Below are positions 14,650-25,581 of a stretch of DNA of 32,000 nucleotides, piece after piece. The DNA lies in assembly GCF_014396165.1 (NCBI RefSeq), contig NZ_CP060715.1, positions 1,920,001 to 1,952,000 on the forward strand, in the 5' to 3' direction. The first letter of the stretch is position 1. Each line of letters starts with the position of its first letter. The notes under the pieces were generated by a model. It worked only from the letters and a program-made list of their open reading frames with translations. It was not told the DNA's origin and searched no databases. The stretch is from Erysipelothrix inopinata (GTDB lineage Bacteria; Bacillota_I; Bacilli_A; Erysipelotrichales; Erysipelotrichaceae). A program made the translations under genes and the position numbers.

Positions 14650-15270
14650 ATGAGTCAAAAACAAATCAATGAAATTCTGAATAAAATAGAAATGGATCAG
14701 GAAAATTCACAATTTAAAGCTATGGGTTGGAAACCCATTGTTTCTGTACATCCCAATGCCAAGATTTTAATTATTGGGCAAGCACCAGGTTTGAAAACCC
14801 AGAATATTGGGAGTGTATTTCATGACCAAAGTGGGGATCGCTTACGTGAATGGTTGGGTGTCACTGAAGCACAGTTCTATGATCCAGCACTATTTGCGAT
14901 TTTACCCATGGATTTCTACTTTCCTGGAAAAGGTAAATCAGGTGATTTGCCACCGCGAAAGAATTTCGCAACAAAGTGGCATCCACTCCTTTTGGAACAG
15001 ATGCCACATATCAAACTTACCATTTTGATTGGATCTTACGCCCAAAATTACTATCTCAAAAATCGATGTGAGAGAAATCTAACCGAAACAGTTCGTAATT
15101 TTAAGGCTTATTTGCCTCAATATTTCACGATTGTACATCCTTCACCTCTTAATAGACGATGGATGGCCAAAAATCCATGGTACGAAACAGATGTCCTCCC
15201 AATCCTTAAGCAGAGTGTTAAGGCTATACTAGAATCTGATAGCCCCCTTGTTGAAGTTTCTTCTCAATAA
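14650..15270 (+). CDS. uracil-DNA glycosylase superfamily protein
   Basis: IIGQAPG (motif A-like) and HPSPLN (motif B-like). ATG 14650 with AAAGGGGTGA SD is preferred over the track start at 14614. Confidence 0.7.
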   Translation: MSQKQINEILNKIEMDQENSQFKAMGWKPIVSVHPNAKILIIGQAPGLKTQNIGSVFHDQSGDRLREWLGVTEAQFYDPALFAILPMDFYFPGKGKSGDLPPRKNFATKWHPLLLEQMPHIKLTILIGSYAQNYYLKNRCERNLTETVRNFKAYLPQYFTIVHPSPLNRRWMAKNPWYETDVLPILKQSVKAILESDSPLVEVSSQ

Positions 15271-16417
15271 TTGAAGCTGTATCAACACTGGGTGCCTCAT
15301 ATGCAATTTTCGCAATACAATAGTTAATCTTCATATTAGAATGGAAACGATCGTGTTCAACATTGACGATGTTTCCTTTTTCATTTGCAATGATTTCAAT
15401 TATTTCATGCAAGGAACCCGAACGATCTGGAATTTCCACTTTGAACTTAACCAATCGACGTTGTTGGAATAAGGCTCTACTTACTACTTTATTAAGAAGT
15501 TCTATATCGATGTTTCCCCCTGAAAGCACACAAGCGATACGCTTATGCTCAGGAAGTTTATCAAATTTAATTGCCGCAAAAGCTGTCGCTCCTGCTCCTT
15601 CCACAATCATTTTATTCTTTTCCATGATATGTAGAATCGATTCAGATATTTCATAATCGGAAACTGTGATAATATCGTCGACATATTGTTGGGTCATCAT
15701 AAAATTACGAGAACCTGGTTCTTTTACTGCAATCCCATCAGCAATTGTTTCGACATCACTTAAACATTGAATATCTTGGTTCTGTAATGAAGCATGCATG
15801 GAGGCTGCTCCTTCTGCTTCCACACCATACACCTTGCAATGGGGCATTAAGGTCTTGATAACGTAGGCTATACCACTTATCAAACCCCCACCACCAACAG
15901 GTACGACGACTGCATCAAAATCTTTAATTTGTTCAATCATTTCCAATGCCACTGTTGCTTGTCCAGCGATAATATCATCATCATTGAAGGGCGGAACTCC
16001 TACTAATTCGTGGACATCCTTATATGCCTTAGCAACTCGTTTGGCATCATCAAAACAACCTGGAACAAGCTTCACATTTGCACCCATAGCTCTTGTAGCA
16101 GCAATTTTAGATGCTGAGCCACATTCCGGTATAAAAATGGTTGCTTTAATACCAAGGTTTTTTGCTGCATGTGCTACACCTTGTGCATGATTCCCGGCTG
16201 ACCAGGCAATCACACCACGATCTTTTTCTTCTTGCGATAATTGACTTAAGAAGTAGGTTGCACCTCTTAATTTAAATGATCCAGTTTTTTGAAGATTTTC
16301 ACATTTTAGAAATACTTCAACATCTTCTGAGAGACCTTCAGCCTTTACGACTGGTGTCTTAGTCACAATATCTTGTAATACATCATTGGCATCAAATACT
16401 TTATCGATATCTATCAT
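15224..16417 (-). CDS. ilvA: threonine ammonia-lyase (threonine dehydratase) with a C-terminal ACT-like domain
   Basis: PLP lysine motif SFKLRGA and glycine loop GGGGLISG; 397 aa. GAGGGAG SD. Confidence 0.9.
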   Translation of the reverse strand: MIDIDKVFDANDVLQDIVTKTPVVKAEGLSEDVEVFLKCENLQKTGSFKLRGATYFLSQLSQEEKDRGVIAWSAGNHAQGVAHAAKNLGIKATIFIPECGSASKIAATRAMGANVKLVPGCFDDAKRVAKAYKDVHELVGVPPFNDDDIIAGQATVALEMIEQIKDFDAVVVPVGGGGLISGIAYVIKTLMPHCKVYGVEAEGAASMHASLQNQDIQCLSDVETIADGIAVKEPGSRNFMMTQQYVDDIITVSDYEISESILHIMEKNKMIVEGAGATAFAAIKFDKLPEHKRIACVLSGGNIDIELLNKVVSRALFQQRRLVKFKVEIPDRSGSLHEIIEIIANEKGNIVNVEHDRFHSNMKINYCIAKIAYEAPSVDTASIIEKKLQQGGYQILV

Positions 16418-16431
16418 AATAACTCCCTCAT

Positions 16432-16445
16432 TGTAAACGCTAACA
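16432..16445. promoter_or_regulatory. candidate CcpA cre site TGTAAACGCTAACA in the ilvA 5' leader
   Basis: Matches every constrained position of TGWAANCGNTNWCA. It lies between a TATAAT (16467-16472, minus strand) and the SD. Confidence 0.4.
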
Positions 16446-16519
16446 TTTATACTCTTATTATATCGTGATATCTGTAGTTATGATAGATTAGAAACGACTT
16501 ACGACACTTTAACATAATT

Positions 16520-16544
16520 AAAGGCACATCAGAGATGTACCTTT
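16520..16544 (-). terminator. possible terminator hairpin after the acetyltransferase gene
   Basis: AAAGGTACATC-tct-GATGTGCCTTT hairpin on the minus strand. The trailing U-tract is weak. Confidence 0.35.
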
Positions 16545-16552
16545 TAGAGTTC

Positions 16553-17203
16553 TTACTTTATTATTTTGTGATAATACTCATATAATGCATCAACATCCCC
16601 ACTCGATATGAGTGGCAATGCTTTCTCTATTTCAGTTCGTGGCCAACAGTACCACTTCATTTCTAACAGTTTTAACGTTTCAGCGTCTGTAAACCGTTGT
16701 TTAATAAACTTGGCGGGATTGCCTCCTACAAGTGTATAGGGTTCAACATCCTTAGTAACGACACTTCCCGAAGCAATAATTGCGCCATCGCCAATGGTGA
16801 TTCCAGGTAGAATCATGGCATCCATCCCTATCCAAACATCGTGACCAATTCGCGTATTACCCTTTGTTTGGTAAGATTCTTGAATTGTTTCAGCAAACGG
16901 ATATAATGAGATCCAATCTGTTCGGTGGTTATGATTACCGCCCATTAGAATAACAGCACCACTTGCAATCGCTACATAATTACCAATAATCAAACGATCT
17001 AGCTGCCATCCATTCTGTTCAATAGGATTAAATAGGGATTGCGACAGAGCATCACCCCACATGAATCTTACGCATCCATCTTCAAAACTCTTGTGACTAT
17101 AGTATCCTGAATAATAGGAGTACTCTCCTACCTCAATGAGTGGATTTCTTACAATATCTTTTAAATACTTCGGTTGAGACCAATGTTTATAATTTTCATT
17201 CAT
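16553..17203 (-). CDS. xenobiotic O-acetyltransferase (hexapeptide-repeat XAT family; CatB-type chloramphenicol or Vat-type streptogramin A acetyltransferase)
   Basis: [11 protein letters not shown]..., [10 protein letters not shown], hexapeptide run [31 protein letters not shown], and [22 protein letters not shown]; 216 aa. Confidence 0.85.
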
Positions 17204-17212
17204 TTTTAAAAC

Positions 17213-17249
17213 CTCTCTTCTATAAAATTATGTTTTGGCTAGAAGAGAG
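17213..17249 (-). promoter_or_regulatory. SD-sequestering hairpin (translational attenuator) upstream of the acetyltransferase
   Basis: Perfect 10-bp stem CTCTCTTCTA / TAGAAGAGAG with a 17-nt loop. The right arm contains the AGAGAGG SD of the XAT gene. The left arm covers the last three codons and the stop of the leader ORF. Confidence 0.6.
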
Positions 17250-17295
17250 CACCTGCGGTTGCTACATTTTTGAACTGTTTTAAATAACGGATCAT
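17239..17295 (-). CDS. 18-codon leader peptide MIRYLKQFKNVATAGALF
   Basis: ATG has a GAGGTG SD 5 nt upstream. It lies downstream of a consensus promoter, and its TAG stop sits inside the hairpin's left arm. Confidence 0.5.
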   Translation of the reverse strand: MIRYLKQFKNVATAGALF

Positions 17296-17321
17296 AACGT
17301 CACCTCGTTTTTCACTACACT

Positions 17322-17350
17322 ATTATTCATAAAACTGGCGCAGTTGTCAA
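17322..17350 (-). promoter_or_regulatory. sigma-A promoter for the leader and XAT genes
   Basis: Consensus TTGACA (17345-17350), an exact 17-nt spacer, then AATAAT (17322-17327). Confidence 0.6.
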
Positions 17351-17362
17351 ATCAATGACTTC

Positions 17363-17851
17363 TTAATACCCTAAATCTCTCGTAATTTTATTGATAATTG
17401 ATTCAAGATTGGCATCATCATATATGAGGAATTCATTCTGTAAATTTAAGACATCATTCTCAACCCACCATGCTTTTAATTCTTGCATACCAAACTCATC
17501 AGTTTGTTTCAGAAGATGTCGTTTGTAAGTTGTATCAAAAGAAACATCAAAATAGAAATAGTAGCATTCAACATCTAATGTCTCAAGATCTAATAAGAAA
17601 TCTCTATATTTGGATGAGGTCAGGATTCCTTCAAGAATTATGACCTCATAACGATTGATACCAAAGGAAATAATTTGTTTCATGAGTGGTATTGAATTAT
17701 TATTTACGGTGTCTTTAACATTTAATATATCTCGACGAATGACATCTTGAGATACGATCATCGTCGAAACATTTAATCTATCTCGTAGTGCATGAGCAAC
17801 CGTTGTTTTACCACATCCACTGTTACCTCTTAATATAACTAGTTTTGTCAT
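17363..17851 (-). CDS. small P-loop kinase / AAA_33-like NTPase
   Basis: Walker A GNSGCGKTT near the N-terminus; about 162 aa. ATG 17851 with AAAGGAAAA SD; the track start at 17866 is a TTG. Confidence 0.65.
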   Translation of the reverse strand: MTKLVILRGNSGCGKTTVAHALRDRLNVSTMIVSQDVIRRDILNVKDTVNNNSIPLMKQIISFGINRYEVIILEGILTSSKYRDFLLDLETLDVECYYFYFDVSFDTTYKRHLLKQTDEFGMQELKAWWVENDVLNLQNEFLIYDDANLESIINKITRDLGY

Positions 17852-17867
17852 TATTTTTCCTTTCAAT

Positions 17868-17896
17868 CAAAAAAGGAACTTCACTAGAAGTTCCTA
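17868..17896 (-). terminator. rho-independent terminator after relA
   Basis: AGGAACTTC-tagt-GAAGTTCCT perfect 9-bp stem overlapping the stop codon, followed by T6. Confidence 0.8.
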
Positions 17897-20089
17897 TAAA
17901 ATAACACGACTTACTCGTATCACGCTGTCCACTTTTCTTAAATTCGCAATTAAATTTCTCAGATGTTCAGCATCTTTGACGACAACGCGCATGGTTGTTG
18001 TAACATGAACTTTATCATCATTTACTTCCGAATTTACAGCATTTAATTTAACTTTAAGTTGCGACACTACAGTTACAAGATCCGTAAGCAAGAAGCTCCG
18101 GTCCGTTGATAGTAATGTCAATACAGCTTCATAGCTTCCACTATCAAAGTCTGTATCCCAGTGGACATCAATTAGGCGACTCTTTTCGTTCGCAATATTA
18201 GGGCAGTCACGTCGATGAACTTTAACACCGCTCCCCTTTGTAACATAACCTACGATGTCATCTCCATAAACGGGATTACAACATTGGCTCAGGCTTATCA
18301 TCATGGAGTCGATTCCAGAAACCTTAACACCGATATCACTGCGTGATTTTGATTCTTGATTCCTTTGGAATACTTTCTCAAATTTAGCTTGATCTTCAAT
18401 TGGCGTACGATTAGTATCGAGTTTTTCAAAGAGTGCTGGAATTGATAATGACTTGCTTGCGATAGCAAACATGAGATCATCGGTAGAATTGACTGAAAAT
18501 TGATTTAGAACTGACTCAAATCGTTTGCTACTGCGTAATTCTTTTTCATCAATATTACGACGTTTACATTCTTCTTTAAAGGTTGCTTCCCCTTTAGTAA
18601 TCATATGCTCACGATCGTCTTGTTCTTTTTTAATCATGAAGGAACGAATTTTATTACGGGCATGAGCTGTTTTCACAACCTTAAGCCAGTCTTCACTTGG
18701 AGTTGATTGTTTGTTCGTTCGAATCTGAACGACATCCCCTGTTTTAAGCTTCGTATTCAAGGGAACTAGGGTTCCATTTACAATGGCTCCAACAGTTTGA
18801 TGCCCCACCTCTGTATGAATACGATAGGCAAAATCAATGGGTGTTGCCCCATTAGGTAAATCAATAACACGTCCCTTAGGAGTCATGACGTAAACATTCG
18901 CTTCAAAGATATCTTTTTGAAGCAAATTCATATAATTTTCAGCATCCGAATCAATGTCTTCTGTAATCATATTGAAATCACGAAGCCATGAGAGTCGATC
19001 TTCAATCTCTTTTTGATACGTTTCTTGATTTCTATTTTGACCTTCTTTATAACGCCAGTGAGCAGCAACTCCTCGTTCAGCAATTTCGTCCATTTTATAA
19101 GTACGAATTTGAACTTCAAAAATCATACCATCTTCACCTACTATTGTAGTATGGAGTGATTGGTACATATTCATTTTTGGCATCGCAATATAATCTTTGA
19201 GTCGTCCAGGGATTGGGCGATAGTTTGCATGAATATGTCCTAAGATTTCATAACAGTTCTGTTCTGTTTCAGTAATAATTCTGATTGCTAACAAGTCAAG
19301 AATTTCGTCGAATCGCTTATGTTTGGTCGTCATCTTCTTATAAATTGAATATAAGTGCTTTGAACGACCAAAAATATTAAACTTAATATTATTTTCCATT
19401 AAGAGATTCGCGAAGTTCTCAATCATAATTGAAACTTGAGCATCTCTTTCAGCTTTACGAGAATCAACCATACGCGCAATTTCGTAGTACTTATCGCGAT
19501 GGAGATAAGAGAAACTGATATCTTCGAGTTCATTTTTAATTTCTCCAAGTCCAAGTCTATGGGCAATCGGAGCATAAACATCAAGTGTCTCTGCTGCAAT
19601 TTTTTGTTGTTTTTCAGGACTTTGATATTGGAGTGTTCTCATATTATGTAGACGGTCAACCAATTTAATGAAGATAACTCGAACATCTTTTGCCATCGCA
19701 ATAAAAATCTTACGGTGATTGGCAGCGAGATATTCTTTTTCATCTTTAAATTCAATATTACCAATCTTGGTAACACTCTCAACGAGCTCTGCTATTTCTG
19801 GAGTAAATGCTTTAGCAAGTTCATCCTTTGTGACATCGCAATCTTCAATGACATCATGTAATAAACCTGCAGCAATCGTAGTTGGAGACATTCTTAAATT
19901 AGCAAGGATATAACCAACATGAAGAATATGAATAATATAGGGTTCACCGCTTTTACGGTACTGACCGTCATGTTTTTCTTCAGCATAGTAATAAGCTCTC
20001 GTGATTAAATCAAGGTTTTCAGGCAATGAAATATATTCTTTACACTCATTTAAAACCTTATTAAAATCGATATCTTTCTCATTTTTCAT
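17894..20089 (-). CDS. relA: bifunctional (p)ppGpp synthetase/hydrolase (RelA/SpoT homolog, Rel)
   Basis: HD motif HDVIEDC, synthetase motif RLKDYIAMPKMNMYQSLHT, plus TGS and ACT regions; 731 aa. Confidence 0.95.
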   Translation of the reverse strand: MKNEKDIDFNKVLNECKEYISLPENLDLITRAYYYAEEKHDGQYRKSGEPYIIHILHVGYILANLRMSPTTIAAGLLHDVIEDCDVTKDELAKAFTPEIAELVESVTKIGNIEFKDEKEYLAANHRKIFIAMAKDVRVIFIKLVDRLHNMRTLQYQSPEKQQKIAAETLDVYAPIAHRLGLGEIKNELEDISFSYLHRDKYYEIARMVDSRKAERDAQVSIMIENFANLLMENNIKFNIFGRSKHLYSIYKKMTTKHKRFDEILDLLAIRIITETEQNCYEILGHIHANYRPIPGRLKDYIAMPKMNMYQSLHTTIVGEDGMIFEVQIRTYKMDEIAERGVAAHWRYKEGQNRNQETYQKEIEDRLSWLRDFNMITEDIDSDAENYMNLLQKDIFEANVYVMTPKGRVIDLPNGATPIDFAYRIHTEVGHQTVGAIVNGTLVPLNTKLKTGDVVQIRTNKQSTPSEDWLKVVKTAHARNKIRSFMIKKEQDDREHMITKGEATFKEECKRRNIDEKELRSSKRFESVLNQFSVNSTDDLMFAIASKSLSIPALFEKLDTNRTPIEDQAKFEKVFQRNQESKSRSDIGVKVSGIDSMMISLSQCCNPVYGDDIVGYVTKGSGVKVHRRDCPNIANEKSRLIDVHWDTDFDSGSYEAVLTLLSTDRSFLLTDLVTVVSQLKVKLNAVNSEVNDDKVHVTTTMRVVVKDAEHLRNLIANLRKVDSVIRVSRVIL

Positions 20090-23888: not shown

Positions 23889-25581
23889 ACTTTAAAGCCA
23901 ACTTTCTGATAAACATAGAGAGAAAATAAATCAATAACAGTGCAAAATAAGCACTAAACAATAATATAAATATTAAGAAGAGACTTCTATTTGATAATTC
24001 ATTAGGAACCATCATCATGATAGGTACACCCATGATTAAGAACATAGTTAAACTCAGTGATAACGAGTCTAAGAAGTCACGTTTGAAGAGTTCTGGATCT
24101 TGTACTGAAATAATTCGTTTATAGGAACTATAGTAACTAAATTCAATAAACGGAATTGATGCTGCAGTGAAGAGCGTGTCATAGCCATCAGAAATATTAA
24201 AAATATGTTTGAATATGTAAAATAATCCAAGGGTTAAAAATGAAAGTGCGGGAATAAACAAAGTATCGCGCAAATCATAATTCAGTCCGACAAAGAGCCA
24301 GGAAACACTAATAAATATTAAAACAATATTTATTAGTTCAGGTGTCGACACAGCACGTTCCCCACGATCAACATGGTAAAATGCTGTTTTCAAATTTAAT
24401 TCTGTACTTATTTTTGTAACCACAAAGTCCATTGAATTCAACGGAATCTCTTGATCAAACTGAATCCAAATATCATGGTCATTACTGTGTTCACTATTTA
24501 CTTGAAAATCATACAAACCAATACGGTGTAACAAAGCTTGCGCTTCCAAGTATTCTGGCGTTTCACAGTTCTCGATTATTAGATAATTGCCATGTTTTAC
24601 TTCTCCGAGGTTTCGTGTTCGATCATGGGTGTAATAAAAAACACCACTCACCATCACAAGGACGAAGAATACAATGACGACGGCATCAAATCGTCTTTTT
24701 CGAAAGCGTTCCAAGTTAGTTTGAGTACGCATCTTAAATGTCAACAATCCTTCATAATCTGTGAGACTTGCGAAAAACGGAATCATCACTAAATTATAAA
24801 CTGTTGCATTGAAGAAACTGATACTTGCAAATGCAATAAGGTAGTAGGCAGCACTTTTCAAACCATAATCACCGTAGGCAGAGCAAAGAATTGCGAGAAT
24901 ACCAAAAAAAGACATATAAATTAGTGAATTGCGCCAGTATTTCTTTTGGAAGTTCTTCTCTGTGGCTACCACTTGTCGTATTGAATTTCCAGAATAATCA
25001 CTGAGATATACTTGTTTTTGATAGACAAGCATCATATACGAGATAAGCATTGCATACCAGATTGAACGTGTAAATGCATAACCCAGCCATCGCGTAAAGT
25101 ACAAACTTAGTAATACAGACGATACGACATTTAAAGAAACAATGAGACCAAAAAATTTATAACGATACGATAAATACACAATCGTTATAAAAAGAAATAA
25201 AGTCATATACAGACTTAAAAATTGTTCAATATTTGCACGTTTAATTTCCGAACCAAAAGTTGCTTCATGAAGCAGATTTAGATCGGGAATTGACGTATTT
25301 AAATTTTCATAGAAAGTTTTTTCGTCATCCAAGCCACCTAAAACAACAAGATAAGTTGTCTCATCGATATTTTCAACAGAACTCTCAATTCCATTGCGTG
25401 CTTGTACATCAAAAAAATATCGTAATTCTTTTTCTTTACTGGTTTGTAGAATCAACTTCGTACTGTAATCAAAATCATTTCCAGTTTTGATTGAATCATA
25501 AGACAATATTCCAATCAGTAAAGAAATTACGAAAGCAGATACTAAAATCAAAAAAATGTTAAGTTTTGATTTTTGTGTCAT
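23875..25581 (-). CDS. 12-TM RND-superfamily membrane protein, divergent minimal SecDF-like
   Basis: Topology is 1+5 / 1+5 TM with two extracytoplasmic loops of about 95 aa. A YRYKFFGL...-type segment follows TM2. It occupies the slot that secDF holds in the Bacillus comN-secDF-recJ-apt-relA arrangement. Confidence 0.5.
   Translation of the reverse strand: MTQKSKLNIFLILVSAFVISLLIGILSYDSIKTGNDFDYSTKLILQTSKEKELRYFFDVQARNGIESSVENIDETTYLVVLGGLDDEKTFYENLNTSIPDLNLLHEATFGSEIKRANIEQFLSLYMTLFLFITIVYLSYRYKFFGLIVSLNVVSSVLLSLYFTRWLGYAFTRSIWYAMLISYMMLVYQKQVYLSDYSGNSIRQVVATEKNFQKKYWRNSLIYMSFFGILAILCSAYGDYGLKSAAYYLIAFASISFFNATVYNLVMIPFFASLTDYEGLLTFKMRTQTNLERFRKRRFDAVVIVFFVLVMVSGVFYYTHDRTRNLGEVKHGNYLIIENCETPEYLEAQALLHRIGLYDFQVNSEHSNDHDIWIQFDQEIPLNSMDFVVTKISTELNLKTAFYHVDRGERAVSTPELINIVLIFISVSWLFVGLNYDLRDTLFIPALSFLTLGLFYIFKHIFNISDGYDTLFTAASIPFIEFSYYSSYKRIISVQDPELFKRDFLDSLSLSLTMFLIMGVPIMMMVPNELSNRSLFLIFILLFSAYFALLLIYFLSMFIRKLALKYGKK

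Follow-up and report, generated by a model that had tools for sequence, protein, structure and literature searches.

A conserved leader peptide and a Shine-Dalgarno-occluding hairpin ahead of CatB-related acetyltransferase genes in Erysipelothrix and other Firmicutes: a probable translational attenuator

The 32,000-nucleotide stretch of Erysipelothrix inopinata contig NZ_CP060715.1 between positions 1,920,001 and 1,952,000 (the window in what follows) encodes on its minus strand a hexapeptide xenobiotic acetyltransferase (XAT), and the gene is preceded by a short leader open reading frame (ORF) and by a hairpin that takes in its Shine-Dalgarno (SD) sequence. The arrangement is probably best explained as a ribosome-mediated translational attenuator, in which drug-dependent arrest of a ribosome on the leader would open the hairpin and expose the SD. 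An earlier examination of this DNA from its letters alone (the sequence-only reading) had proposed that the leader ORF and the SD-occluding hairpin attenuate a hexapeptide acetyltransferase gene, and comparison with homologous loci strongly supports the proposal. The promoter, the leader SD, the 18-codon ORF and the perfect 10-bp stem over the acetyltransferase SD that it had described were all found where it had placed them on the minus strand:

17345..17350, minus strand: -35 hexamer TTGACA (read from the sequence and found by promoter scan)
17322..17327, minus strand: -10 hexamer AATAAT, separated from the -35 hexamer by a 17-nt spacer (sequence and promoter scan)
17301..17306, minus strand: SD of the leader ORF, GAGGTG, 5 nt before the leader ATG (sequence)
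17239..17295, minus strand: leader ORF of 18 codons and TAG, MIRYLKQFKNVATAGALF, with the ATG at 17295-17293 and the TAG at 17241-17239 (sequence; homologous ORFs in 53 loci)
17257..17271, minus strand: leader codons 9-13 (K-N-V-A-T), the most conserved core and the putative arrest site, with codon 12 or 13 in the peptidyl (P) site (comparative)
17240..17249, minus strand: hairpin 5′ arm, CTCTCTTCTA, shared with leader codons 16-18 and the stop codon (sequence, fold and inverted-repeat list)
17223..17239, minus strand: hairpin loop of 17 nt (fold and inverted-repeat list)
17213..17222, minus strand: hairpin 3′ arm, TAGAAGAGAG, which includes most of the acetyltransferase SD (sequence, fold and inverted-repeat list)
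17212..17218, minus strand: acetyltransferase SD, AGAGAGG (sequence)
16553..17203, minus strand: hexapeptide xenobiotic acetyltransferase of 216 aa, CatB-related and like the 'type C' chloramphenicol acetyltransferases (NCBIfam, Pfam and structure matches)
16520..16544, minus strand: terminator-like hairpin closing the transcription unit (terminator scan)

The two promoter hexamers agree with the consensus at 11 of 12 positions and make up the top promoter-like site in a scan of 16300-17900. Homologous loci have TTGAC-type promoters of their own at the equivalent relative place, and SD-like sequences precede the leader ATG in relatives also. The first base of the 5′ arm is the second base of codon 16, and the arm extends into the leader's stop codon; the 3′ arm takes in AGAGAG of AGAGAGG, the GAGG of which stands 8 nt before the acetyltransferase ATG (17203-17201). 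Together CTCTCTTCTA and TAGAAGAGAG form a perfect 10-bp inverted repeat (pair I22). Among the 25 longest of the 29 inverted-repeat pairs listed for the 32-kb window, it is one of only three (I4, I9 and I22) that are perfect over 10 nt or more and have separate arms.

Homologous loci were fetched via the protein alone, by one genome scan, twelve exact-protein look-ups and a tblastn search of plasmids. The resulting protein-anchored set consists of 18 Firmicute loci, the window included, with 58-96% protein identity and from more than 10 genera: four from Erysipelothrix (the window being counted), three from Bacillus plasmids or chromids, two from Brevibacillus, and the remainder from Vagococcus, Paenibacillus, Enterococcus, Clostridium, Metabacillus, Carnobacterium, Peptostreptococcus, Melissococcus and Gottschalkia. 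Metagenome contigs were scanned for a DNA pattern that was built on leader codons 1-13 alone and took in neither the hairpin nor the gene downstream. This metagenome subset was thus chosen by a pattern that fixes part of codons 1-13, a caveat of which the 18 protein-anchored loci are free. The full data set comprises 53 loci, with 39 distinct leader-to-ATG sequences and 27 distinct peptides; leader residue counts are given out of the 27 distinct peptides, and arm-spacing counts out of 38 distinct sequences.

All 18 protein-anchored loci have an SD-preceded upstream ORF (uORF) in which codons 9-11 read [KR]-N-V, and behind it a hairpin whose end lies at the SD or within it. The motif is absent from 22 proteobacterial loci with 46-52% protein identity, and absent too from more distant Firmicute and Negativicute XAT loci (approximately 40% identity). 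The leader-only pattern found 42 stretches in the metagenomes, 31 of which hold the leader together with this acetyltransferase family; one of these copies is cut by a contig end, and one (L083) is a derivative in which a deletion has joined the leader region onto a shortened form of the acetyltransferase gene. Of the remaining stretches, eight hold one unrelated 38-aa phage ORF, one match lies inside a long ORF and one is unclear, and no other resistance-gene class was found behind the leader among the 42. The 38-aa ORF, MKRSLREIKNVFMSILRDIKKEIDSGEQPGETVIDTMF, matches the leader DNA pattern in L066, L079, L087, L089, L092, L096, L097, L103 and L106, which include one viral contig and several human-gut and other metagenome contigs; it was judged an unrelated chance match because no acetyltransferase lies downstream of it. 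In viral contigs the pattern had one genuine match, a provirus-like copy from Paenibacillus, and two matches put down to chance.

The leader consensus over codons 1-13 is M-x-R-R-L-K-x-[FL]-K-N-V-A-[T/V], with the following residues at each position:

Position 1: M
Position 2: mostly V or I
Position 3: R in 24, K in 3
Position 4: R in 24
Position 5: L in 26
Position 6: K or R in 26
Position 7: variable
Position 8: F, L, I or M
Position 9: K in 25, R in 2
Position 10: N in 27 (invariant)
Position 11: V in 27 (invariant)
Position 12: A in 24, I in 2, S in 1
Position 13: T in 13, V in 12, I in 2
Positions 14 onward: variable

Synonymous codons vary beneath this conserved sequence, with all four codons in use for Val11 and for Ala12, and four Leu codons for Leu8. 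Such variation at conserved residues points to a constraint on the peptide, and hence to a leader ORF that is translated; judged from the codons, selection on the leader is at the peptide level. The sequence-only reading had pointed to the Ala/Thr-rich end of the leader (VATAGAL) as lying at the right distance for a stalled ribosome to open the stem. This needs correction, as the selected part is residues 1-13 and the AGALF tail varies or is absent. In Clostridium L052 and Gottschalkia L063 the leader ends after codon 13 (stop at codon 14). In the Brevibacillus-like loci L064, L071, L086, L091 and L093 it ends after codon 14 (stop at codon 15), a frameshift relative to L065 giving MVRRLKRFKNVATA and a stop. 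These short leaders retain the K-N-V-A-T/V core and keep the hairpin, for which reason the AGALF tail is not considered a functional part. In L001, an Erysipelothrix metagenome-assembled genome whose protein is 92% identical to that of the window, the leader is the same save for A14G.

The hairpin keeps a fixed distance from the conserved core. Measured from the first base of codon 9, its 5′ arm starts 22 nt downstream (+10 from codon 13) in 32 of the 38 distinct sequences and 20-23 nt downstream in 37 of them, and the offset of about 10 nt between codon 13 and the stem is constant wherever the leader stops. The stem sequence is lineage-specific, being GCTTCTAAGT/ACTTAGAAGC in the main Bacillus/Paenibacillus/Enterococcus group, CGTTTCTAGATTT/AAATTTAGAAACG in L046, CTTTTTTCTTT/AAAGAAAAGAG in L047, CCTAAGTT/AATTTAGG in L052, TTTCAAAATA/TATTTTGAAA in L058 and TTCTAAATAATTTT/AAAATTATTTAGAA in L063, and yet the arms remain paired: 90.6% of alignment cells pair, compared with 32-51% when the partners are slid by 1-3 columns. 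The loop is 7-19 nt long in relatives, and the 3′ arm takes in SD bases in the window, L047, L052 and L058.

RNAalifold predicted no structure on the MAFFT alignment, in which five divergent rows are misaligned. For this reason pairs were counted on a hand-specified helix of 11 pairs over the MAFFT alignment, with the five misaligned rows scored as broken, which makes the count conservative. Even so, 6 of the 11 pairs have changed on both sides, a number reached by none of 500 shuffles. In an arm-swap control, duplexes formed by the arms of the same locus have a mean energy of -13.1 kcal/mol, against -7.0 kcal/mol for swapped arms. The window hairpin is present in both the minimum free energy fold and the centroid fold (RNAfold). 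The stretch from codon 13 to the ATG, compared with dinucleotide shuffles, has a z of -2.4 in the window and a mean z of -3.3 over the 18 homologous loci, each of which is stabler than its own shuffles; the whole 131-nt leader is not unusually stable compared with shuffles (z = -0.65). It is the comparative evidence that places the hairpin beyond chance and gives it decisive support. The sequence-only reading had suggested checking for leader and stem covariation upstream of homologues, and this check came out in its favour, leader, hairpin and spacing all being kept throughout the protein-anchored Firmicute set.

In the proposed mechanism, transcription from the promoter at 17350-17322 would give a single mRNA that holds the 18-codon leader ORF and then the acetyltransferase gene. 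In the free mRNA the 10-bp hairpin would tie the end of the leader ORF to the acetyltransferase SD, so that the enzyme would be poorly translated. In the on state a ribosome would be arrested with codon 12 or 13 (..K-N-V-A-T) in the P site and with its front edge at the base of the hairpin; the basal G/C-containing pairs, which comprise most of the few G-C pairs of the stem, would melt, the A/U-rich rest would open, and the SD would become free for another ribosome. The arrest would most likely be caused by an antibiotic of the peptidyl-transferase centre acting together with the conserved nascent peptide of residues 1-13. It is placed at codon 12 or 13, at the foot of the stem and not within it, because residues 1-13 are selected while the tail varies or is absent. 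A crude occupancy model of the window raises the unpaired probability of the SD region from 0.02 in the free RNA to 0.35-0.52 when a ribosome at codons 12-14 covers a further +15 nt, and accessibility rises in most loci; the model is given little weight since it is noisy, the SD window being anchored differently at each locus. The locus has the features by which leader attenuators are recognised, that is, a short leader ORF with its own SD, co-transcribed with and immediately upstream of a resistance gene, an SD-sequestering stem-loop backed by covariation, and selection on the leader's amino acid sequence, as seen in the invariant N10 and V11 and the synonymous codons. A paused ribosome would also overlap the 5′ arm, although this overlap would be limited to the basal pairs.

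The acetyltransferase had been described as CatB/Vat-type, and of this description the CatB half stands, as CatB/'type C'-like, whereas the Vat half does not. Against NCBIfam the window protein scores 222 bits with CatB (NF000490, cut-off 350) and 154 bits with Vat (NF000311, cut-off 300). Because both scores fall below the curated cut-offs it is termed here a 'CatB-related O-acetyltransferase', which is the NCBI name of its homologues. Pfam recognises a Hexapep domain, or hexapeptide repeats, in the protein. The His in its ..GNHNHR.. aligns with that of ..GNQGHR.. in 1XAT, a conserved active-site motif, and we take this residue to be catalytic from the role of His79 in the hexapeptide xenobiotic acetyltransferase family. 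Its best solved relatives are 5UX9 (198 bits) and 1XAT (192 bits), both proven chloramphenicol acetyltransferases (CATs), and CatB8 (190 bits), the CATs ranging from 183 to 198 bits, as against approximately 121 bits for Vat structures. 5UX9, from Aliivibrio fischeri, is a CAT of 'type C', a class set apart from type B by an insertion (PMC8096840). The window protein has this insertion, a segment of about 13 residues that is gapped against 1XAT and aligns with 5UX9. It therefore shares both the hexapeptide fold and the type C insertion with the Aliivibrio enzyme, although it is only approximately 46-52% identical to its Vibrionaceae relatives. By these scores the gene is clearly nearer to CatB and the type C CATs than to Vat.

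Control by translation attenuation, exerted by a drug-stalled ribosome, is established for catA genes (cat-86 and the cat genes of pC194 and pUB112) and for cmlA (PMC8876359, PMC5331189). The window locus resembles these in its short leader ORF with an SD of its own, in its single SD-occluding stem-loop, and in having a leader that overlaps or nears the 5′ arm. It differs from them in that the resistance gene encodes a hexapeptide acetyltransferase rather than a classical CatA or an efflux pump, and in that 13 residues of the leader (MxRRLKx[FL]KNVA[T/V]) are conserved, compared with the arrest peptides of 5-8 residues of the catA/cmlA type, such as MVKTD, MKKSE and MSTSKNAD. The P-site residue would moreover be Thr, Val or Ala and not Asp or Glu, and the expected place of arrest is at a greater distance from the stem. 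Of the pattern of classic chloramphenicol arrest leaders (Lys at -3, Ala, Ser or Thr at -1, Asp or Glu at 0) the leader fits only the Ala or Ser at -1, and it has no acidic P-site residue.

For a hexapeptide CAT, chloramphenicol-inducible expression by translation attenuation has been reported in the case of Agrobacterium tumefaciens catB (Rogers, Rahman, Hill and Lovett 2002, J Bacteriol 184:4296, as cited in PMC5331189). The Agrobacterium gene is of the hexapeptide type, as is that of the window, but it encodes a type B enzyme and comes from a different phylum. The sequence-only reading had held attenuation to be unusual for type-B (hexapeptide) acetyltransferases; on the account of A. tumefaciens catB cited in PMC5331189 this has to be corrected, and the novelty was overstated because the principle is textbook knowledge and has already been extended to a hexapeptide CAT. 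A query with an Agrobacterium catB protein sequence gave only relatives of approximately 76% identity in the plasmid collection, and three alpha-proteobacterial plasmid or chromid catB loci (L111, L112 and L113) serve as stand-ins for it. Between 110 and 160 nt before the catB start these have uORFs reading MKSADCTI, MKAAPSTTCIALSRA and MKAADRTTGIALPRF, each closed by a stop codon. The uORFs are of the types MKSAD.., MKAAD.. and MKAAP.., the first two of which present the canonical chloramphenicol arrest context (Lys at -3, Ala at -1, Asp at 0), and the MK[SA]AD uORFs presumably represent the attenuator type of Agrobacterium catB. Unlike the Firmicute leader, to which they have no sequence kinship, they lie in G+C-rich structures.

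A further parallel is offered by ErmBL, the leader peptide of erm(B), which arrests at codon 10 with erythromycin, in which R7-K11 are critical, and whose C-terminal part is dispensable for induction (PMC8274638). As is proposed for the window-type leader, its arrest depends on both drug and nascent peptide, and the dispensable C-terminal part invites comparison with the variable tail described above. It differs in being induced by macrolides, in controlling an rRNA methyltransferase, in its unrelated N-terminal part and in its arrest at codon 10. The ErmBL core R7-(N8)-V9-D10-K11, in which position 8 is presumably Asn, resembles [KR]9-N10-V11-A12-[TV]13, a likeness of three residues that may be coincidental.

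Which drug would act as inducer can be considered in the light of the known preferences of chloramphenicol, with which arrest is best when Ala, and next Ser or Thr, is at -1, is potentiated by Lys at -3, and is nearly abolished by Gly in the A site (PMC11832420). Assuming the attenuator mechanism, a phenicol (chloramphenicol or another) is on balance the favoured inducer, because 25 of the 27 leaders have Ala or Ser at position 12, in keeping with the -1 rule, because the enzyme is CAT-like, and because the same logic has been reported for cat-86, cmlA and A. tumefaciens catB. A number of points weigh against a drug-operated attenuator of this kind. When codon 13 occupies the P site the stem is at about +10, so that a stalled ribosome would reach the first few pairs only, and in the largest sequence group the 3′ arm stops just before GAGG and does not cover it. 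Codon 14 is Gly in 3 of the 27 leaders and position 12 is Ile in 2, and the long conserved basic N-terminal part is unexplained by a simple rule of Ala at -1. The enzyme falls under the NCBIfam CatB cut-off, so that its substrate can only be inferred. The leader conservation seen in the metagenomes is partly circular because the retrieval pattern fixes part of the leader, and the inducibility of the gene is itself deduced from sequence. In view of the Gly14 and Ile12 leaders, the unexplained N-terminal part and the ErmBL-like core, an inducer other than a phenicol is kept as the main rival. The same architecture would then respond to a streptogramin A, a lincosamide, a pleuromutilin, an oxazolidinone-like drug or a tunnel-binding drug, for instance a macrolide, and the inducer might correspond to a substrate of the enzyme other than chloramphenicol. 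The leader is indeed far longer and more conserved than classic chloramphenicol leaders, among which the alpha-proteobacterial catB leaders have 5-residue MK[SA]AD cores, its [KR]-N-V core recalls R7-(N8)-V9 of an erythromycin arrest peptide, and the enzyme scores under the curated CatB cut-off. We nevertheless regard a non-phenicol inducer as rather unlikely, given that the enzyme is nearer to CatB and the type C CATs than to Vat and that nearly all leaders obey the chloramphenicol rule at position 12. Moreover, hexapeptide xenobiotic acetyltransferases are not known to modify macrolides.

Two further explanations dispense with a drug or with SD masking. Routine translation and termination on the leader might unfold the hairpin and so set a constitutive level of expression, since in most loci the leader stop falls within the 5′ arm or shortly ahead of it and a terminating ribosome must there open part of the stem; in L052 and L063 it would sit exactly at the proposed stall place. 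Such coupling needs no particular peptide, but here 13 residues are kept in more than 10 genera despite synonymous codon changes; furthermore, the stop can fall at codon 14, 15, 18, 19 or 23, and still the spacing between codon 13 and the stem holds. Drug-independent coupling is accordingly judged very improbable. The hairpin could also be read as an intrinsic terminator, with control by transcription attenuation, in that GUUUU follows directly 3′ of the stem in the window. This last reading is scarcely credible and was rejected: the terminator scan made no call for the hairpin, the loop is 17 nt long, the stem is followed in relatives by GAGGAA.. and by no U-run, leaving no conserved U-tract, and no conserved alternative antiterminator pairing was found.

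Other clades of hexapeptide CAT genes have leaders of their own. In L003-L023, conserved uORFs stand 100-215 nt upstream of the start of gamma-proteobacterial type-C-like cat genes. Those of Vibrio, Photobacterium, Aliivibrio and Psychromonas contain ..PLL[LKN]QPR[IV].., for example MKLIPLLKQPRIH followed by a stop, which sets the Vibrionaceae cat genes, with their different conserved uORF (..PLLxQPR[IV]..), apart from the window; those of Aeromonas read M.RPRLPQ.LGCS.LCVPR.LVWIY and a stop. Together the two kinds account for 21 of 22 loci, and L006 and L018 share GTTCCGTGGC, which is able to pair with the start-codon region. These uORFs are probably a separate attenuator family. That other clades own distinct conserved uORFs suggests that leader control is common for chromosomal CATs of types B and C and has arisen more than once. 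A bolder and more doubtful proposition is that the 13-residue leader, with its ErmBL-like [KR]-N-V core, is an unrecognised arrest peptide whose drug specificity is broader than, or different from, 'Ala at -1', and that hexapeptide CAT genes of different phyla have independently gained at least four unrelated sensors (Firmicute KNVA, Vibrionaceae PLLxQPR[IV], Aeromonas RPRLPQ..LVWIY and alpha-proteobacterial MK[SA]AD). Were this so, chromosomal type B/C CATs would as a rule, and not exceptionally, be under inducible control.

The known principle of attenuation is unchanged by these findings, and what is new seems to be the leader family and its breadth rather than the principle. The family itself appears to be undescribed and unannotated. 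No Rfam covariance model matched 17200-17350 at E ≤ 1, and a scan of 15000-19000 gave only a chance greA-leader hit elsewhere; the element carries no annotation in the public records inspected, for example that of Bacillus mycoides KBAB4 pBWB401; and neither the leader peptide sequences in this context nor a link between such a leader and XAT genes was found in the searchable literature, which misses most subscription journals. If the attenuator operates as proposed, the 'CatB-related' acetyltransferases of Bacillus, Paenibacillus, Enterococcus, Vagococcus, Melissococcus, Erysipelothrix and clostridia probably stay silent in the absence of an inducer, which bears on the reading of phenotypic resistance screens and of resistome predictions. 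The leader would also provide a naturally conserved, longer arrest peptide with which to probe the nascent-chain context beyond -1 and -3 in the action of peptidyl-transferase-centre inhibitors.

Just upstream of the attenuator, 17363-17866 on the minus strand encodes a P-loop kinase-like protein of 167 aa, which belongs to NCBIfam family PRK06762 (AAA_33) and faintly resembles the Gar/GrdA ATP-binding proteins of gentamicin resistance (E = 3.6e-4). There is no terminator between this gene and the leader promoter, and in the close relative L001 the gene is deleted save for its last 15 or so codons. A terminator-like hairpin with a U-run (17874-17895, minus strand) lies directly after a relA/spoT-type gene (17894-20089, minus strand), and the same terminator is found in L001. 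Elsewhere in the window, a cluster of inverted repeats between 24300 and 25600 includes a perfect 13-bp stem (24307-24337), a perfect 11-bp stem (25156-25191), a 16-nt stem (25538-25579) and palindromes at 24342, 24428 and 25246.

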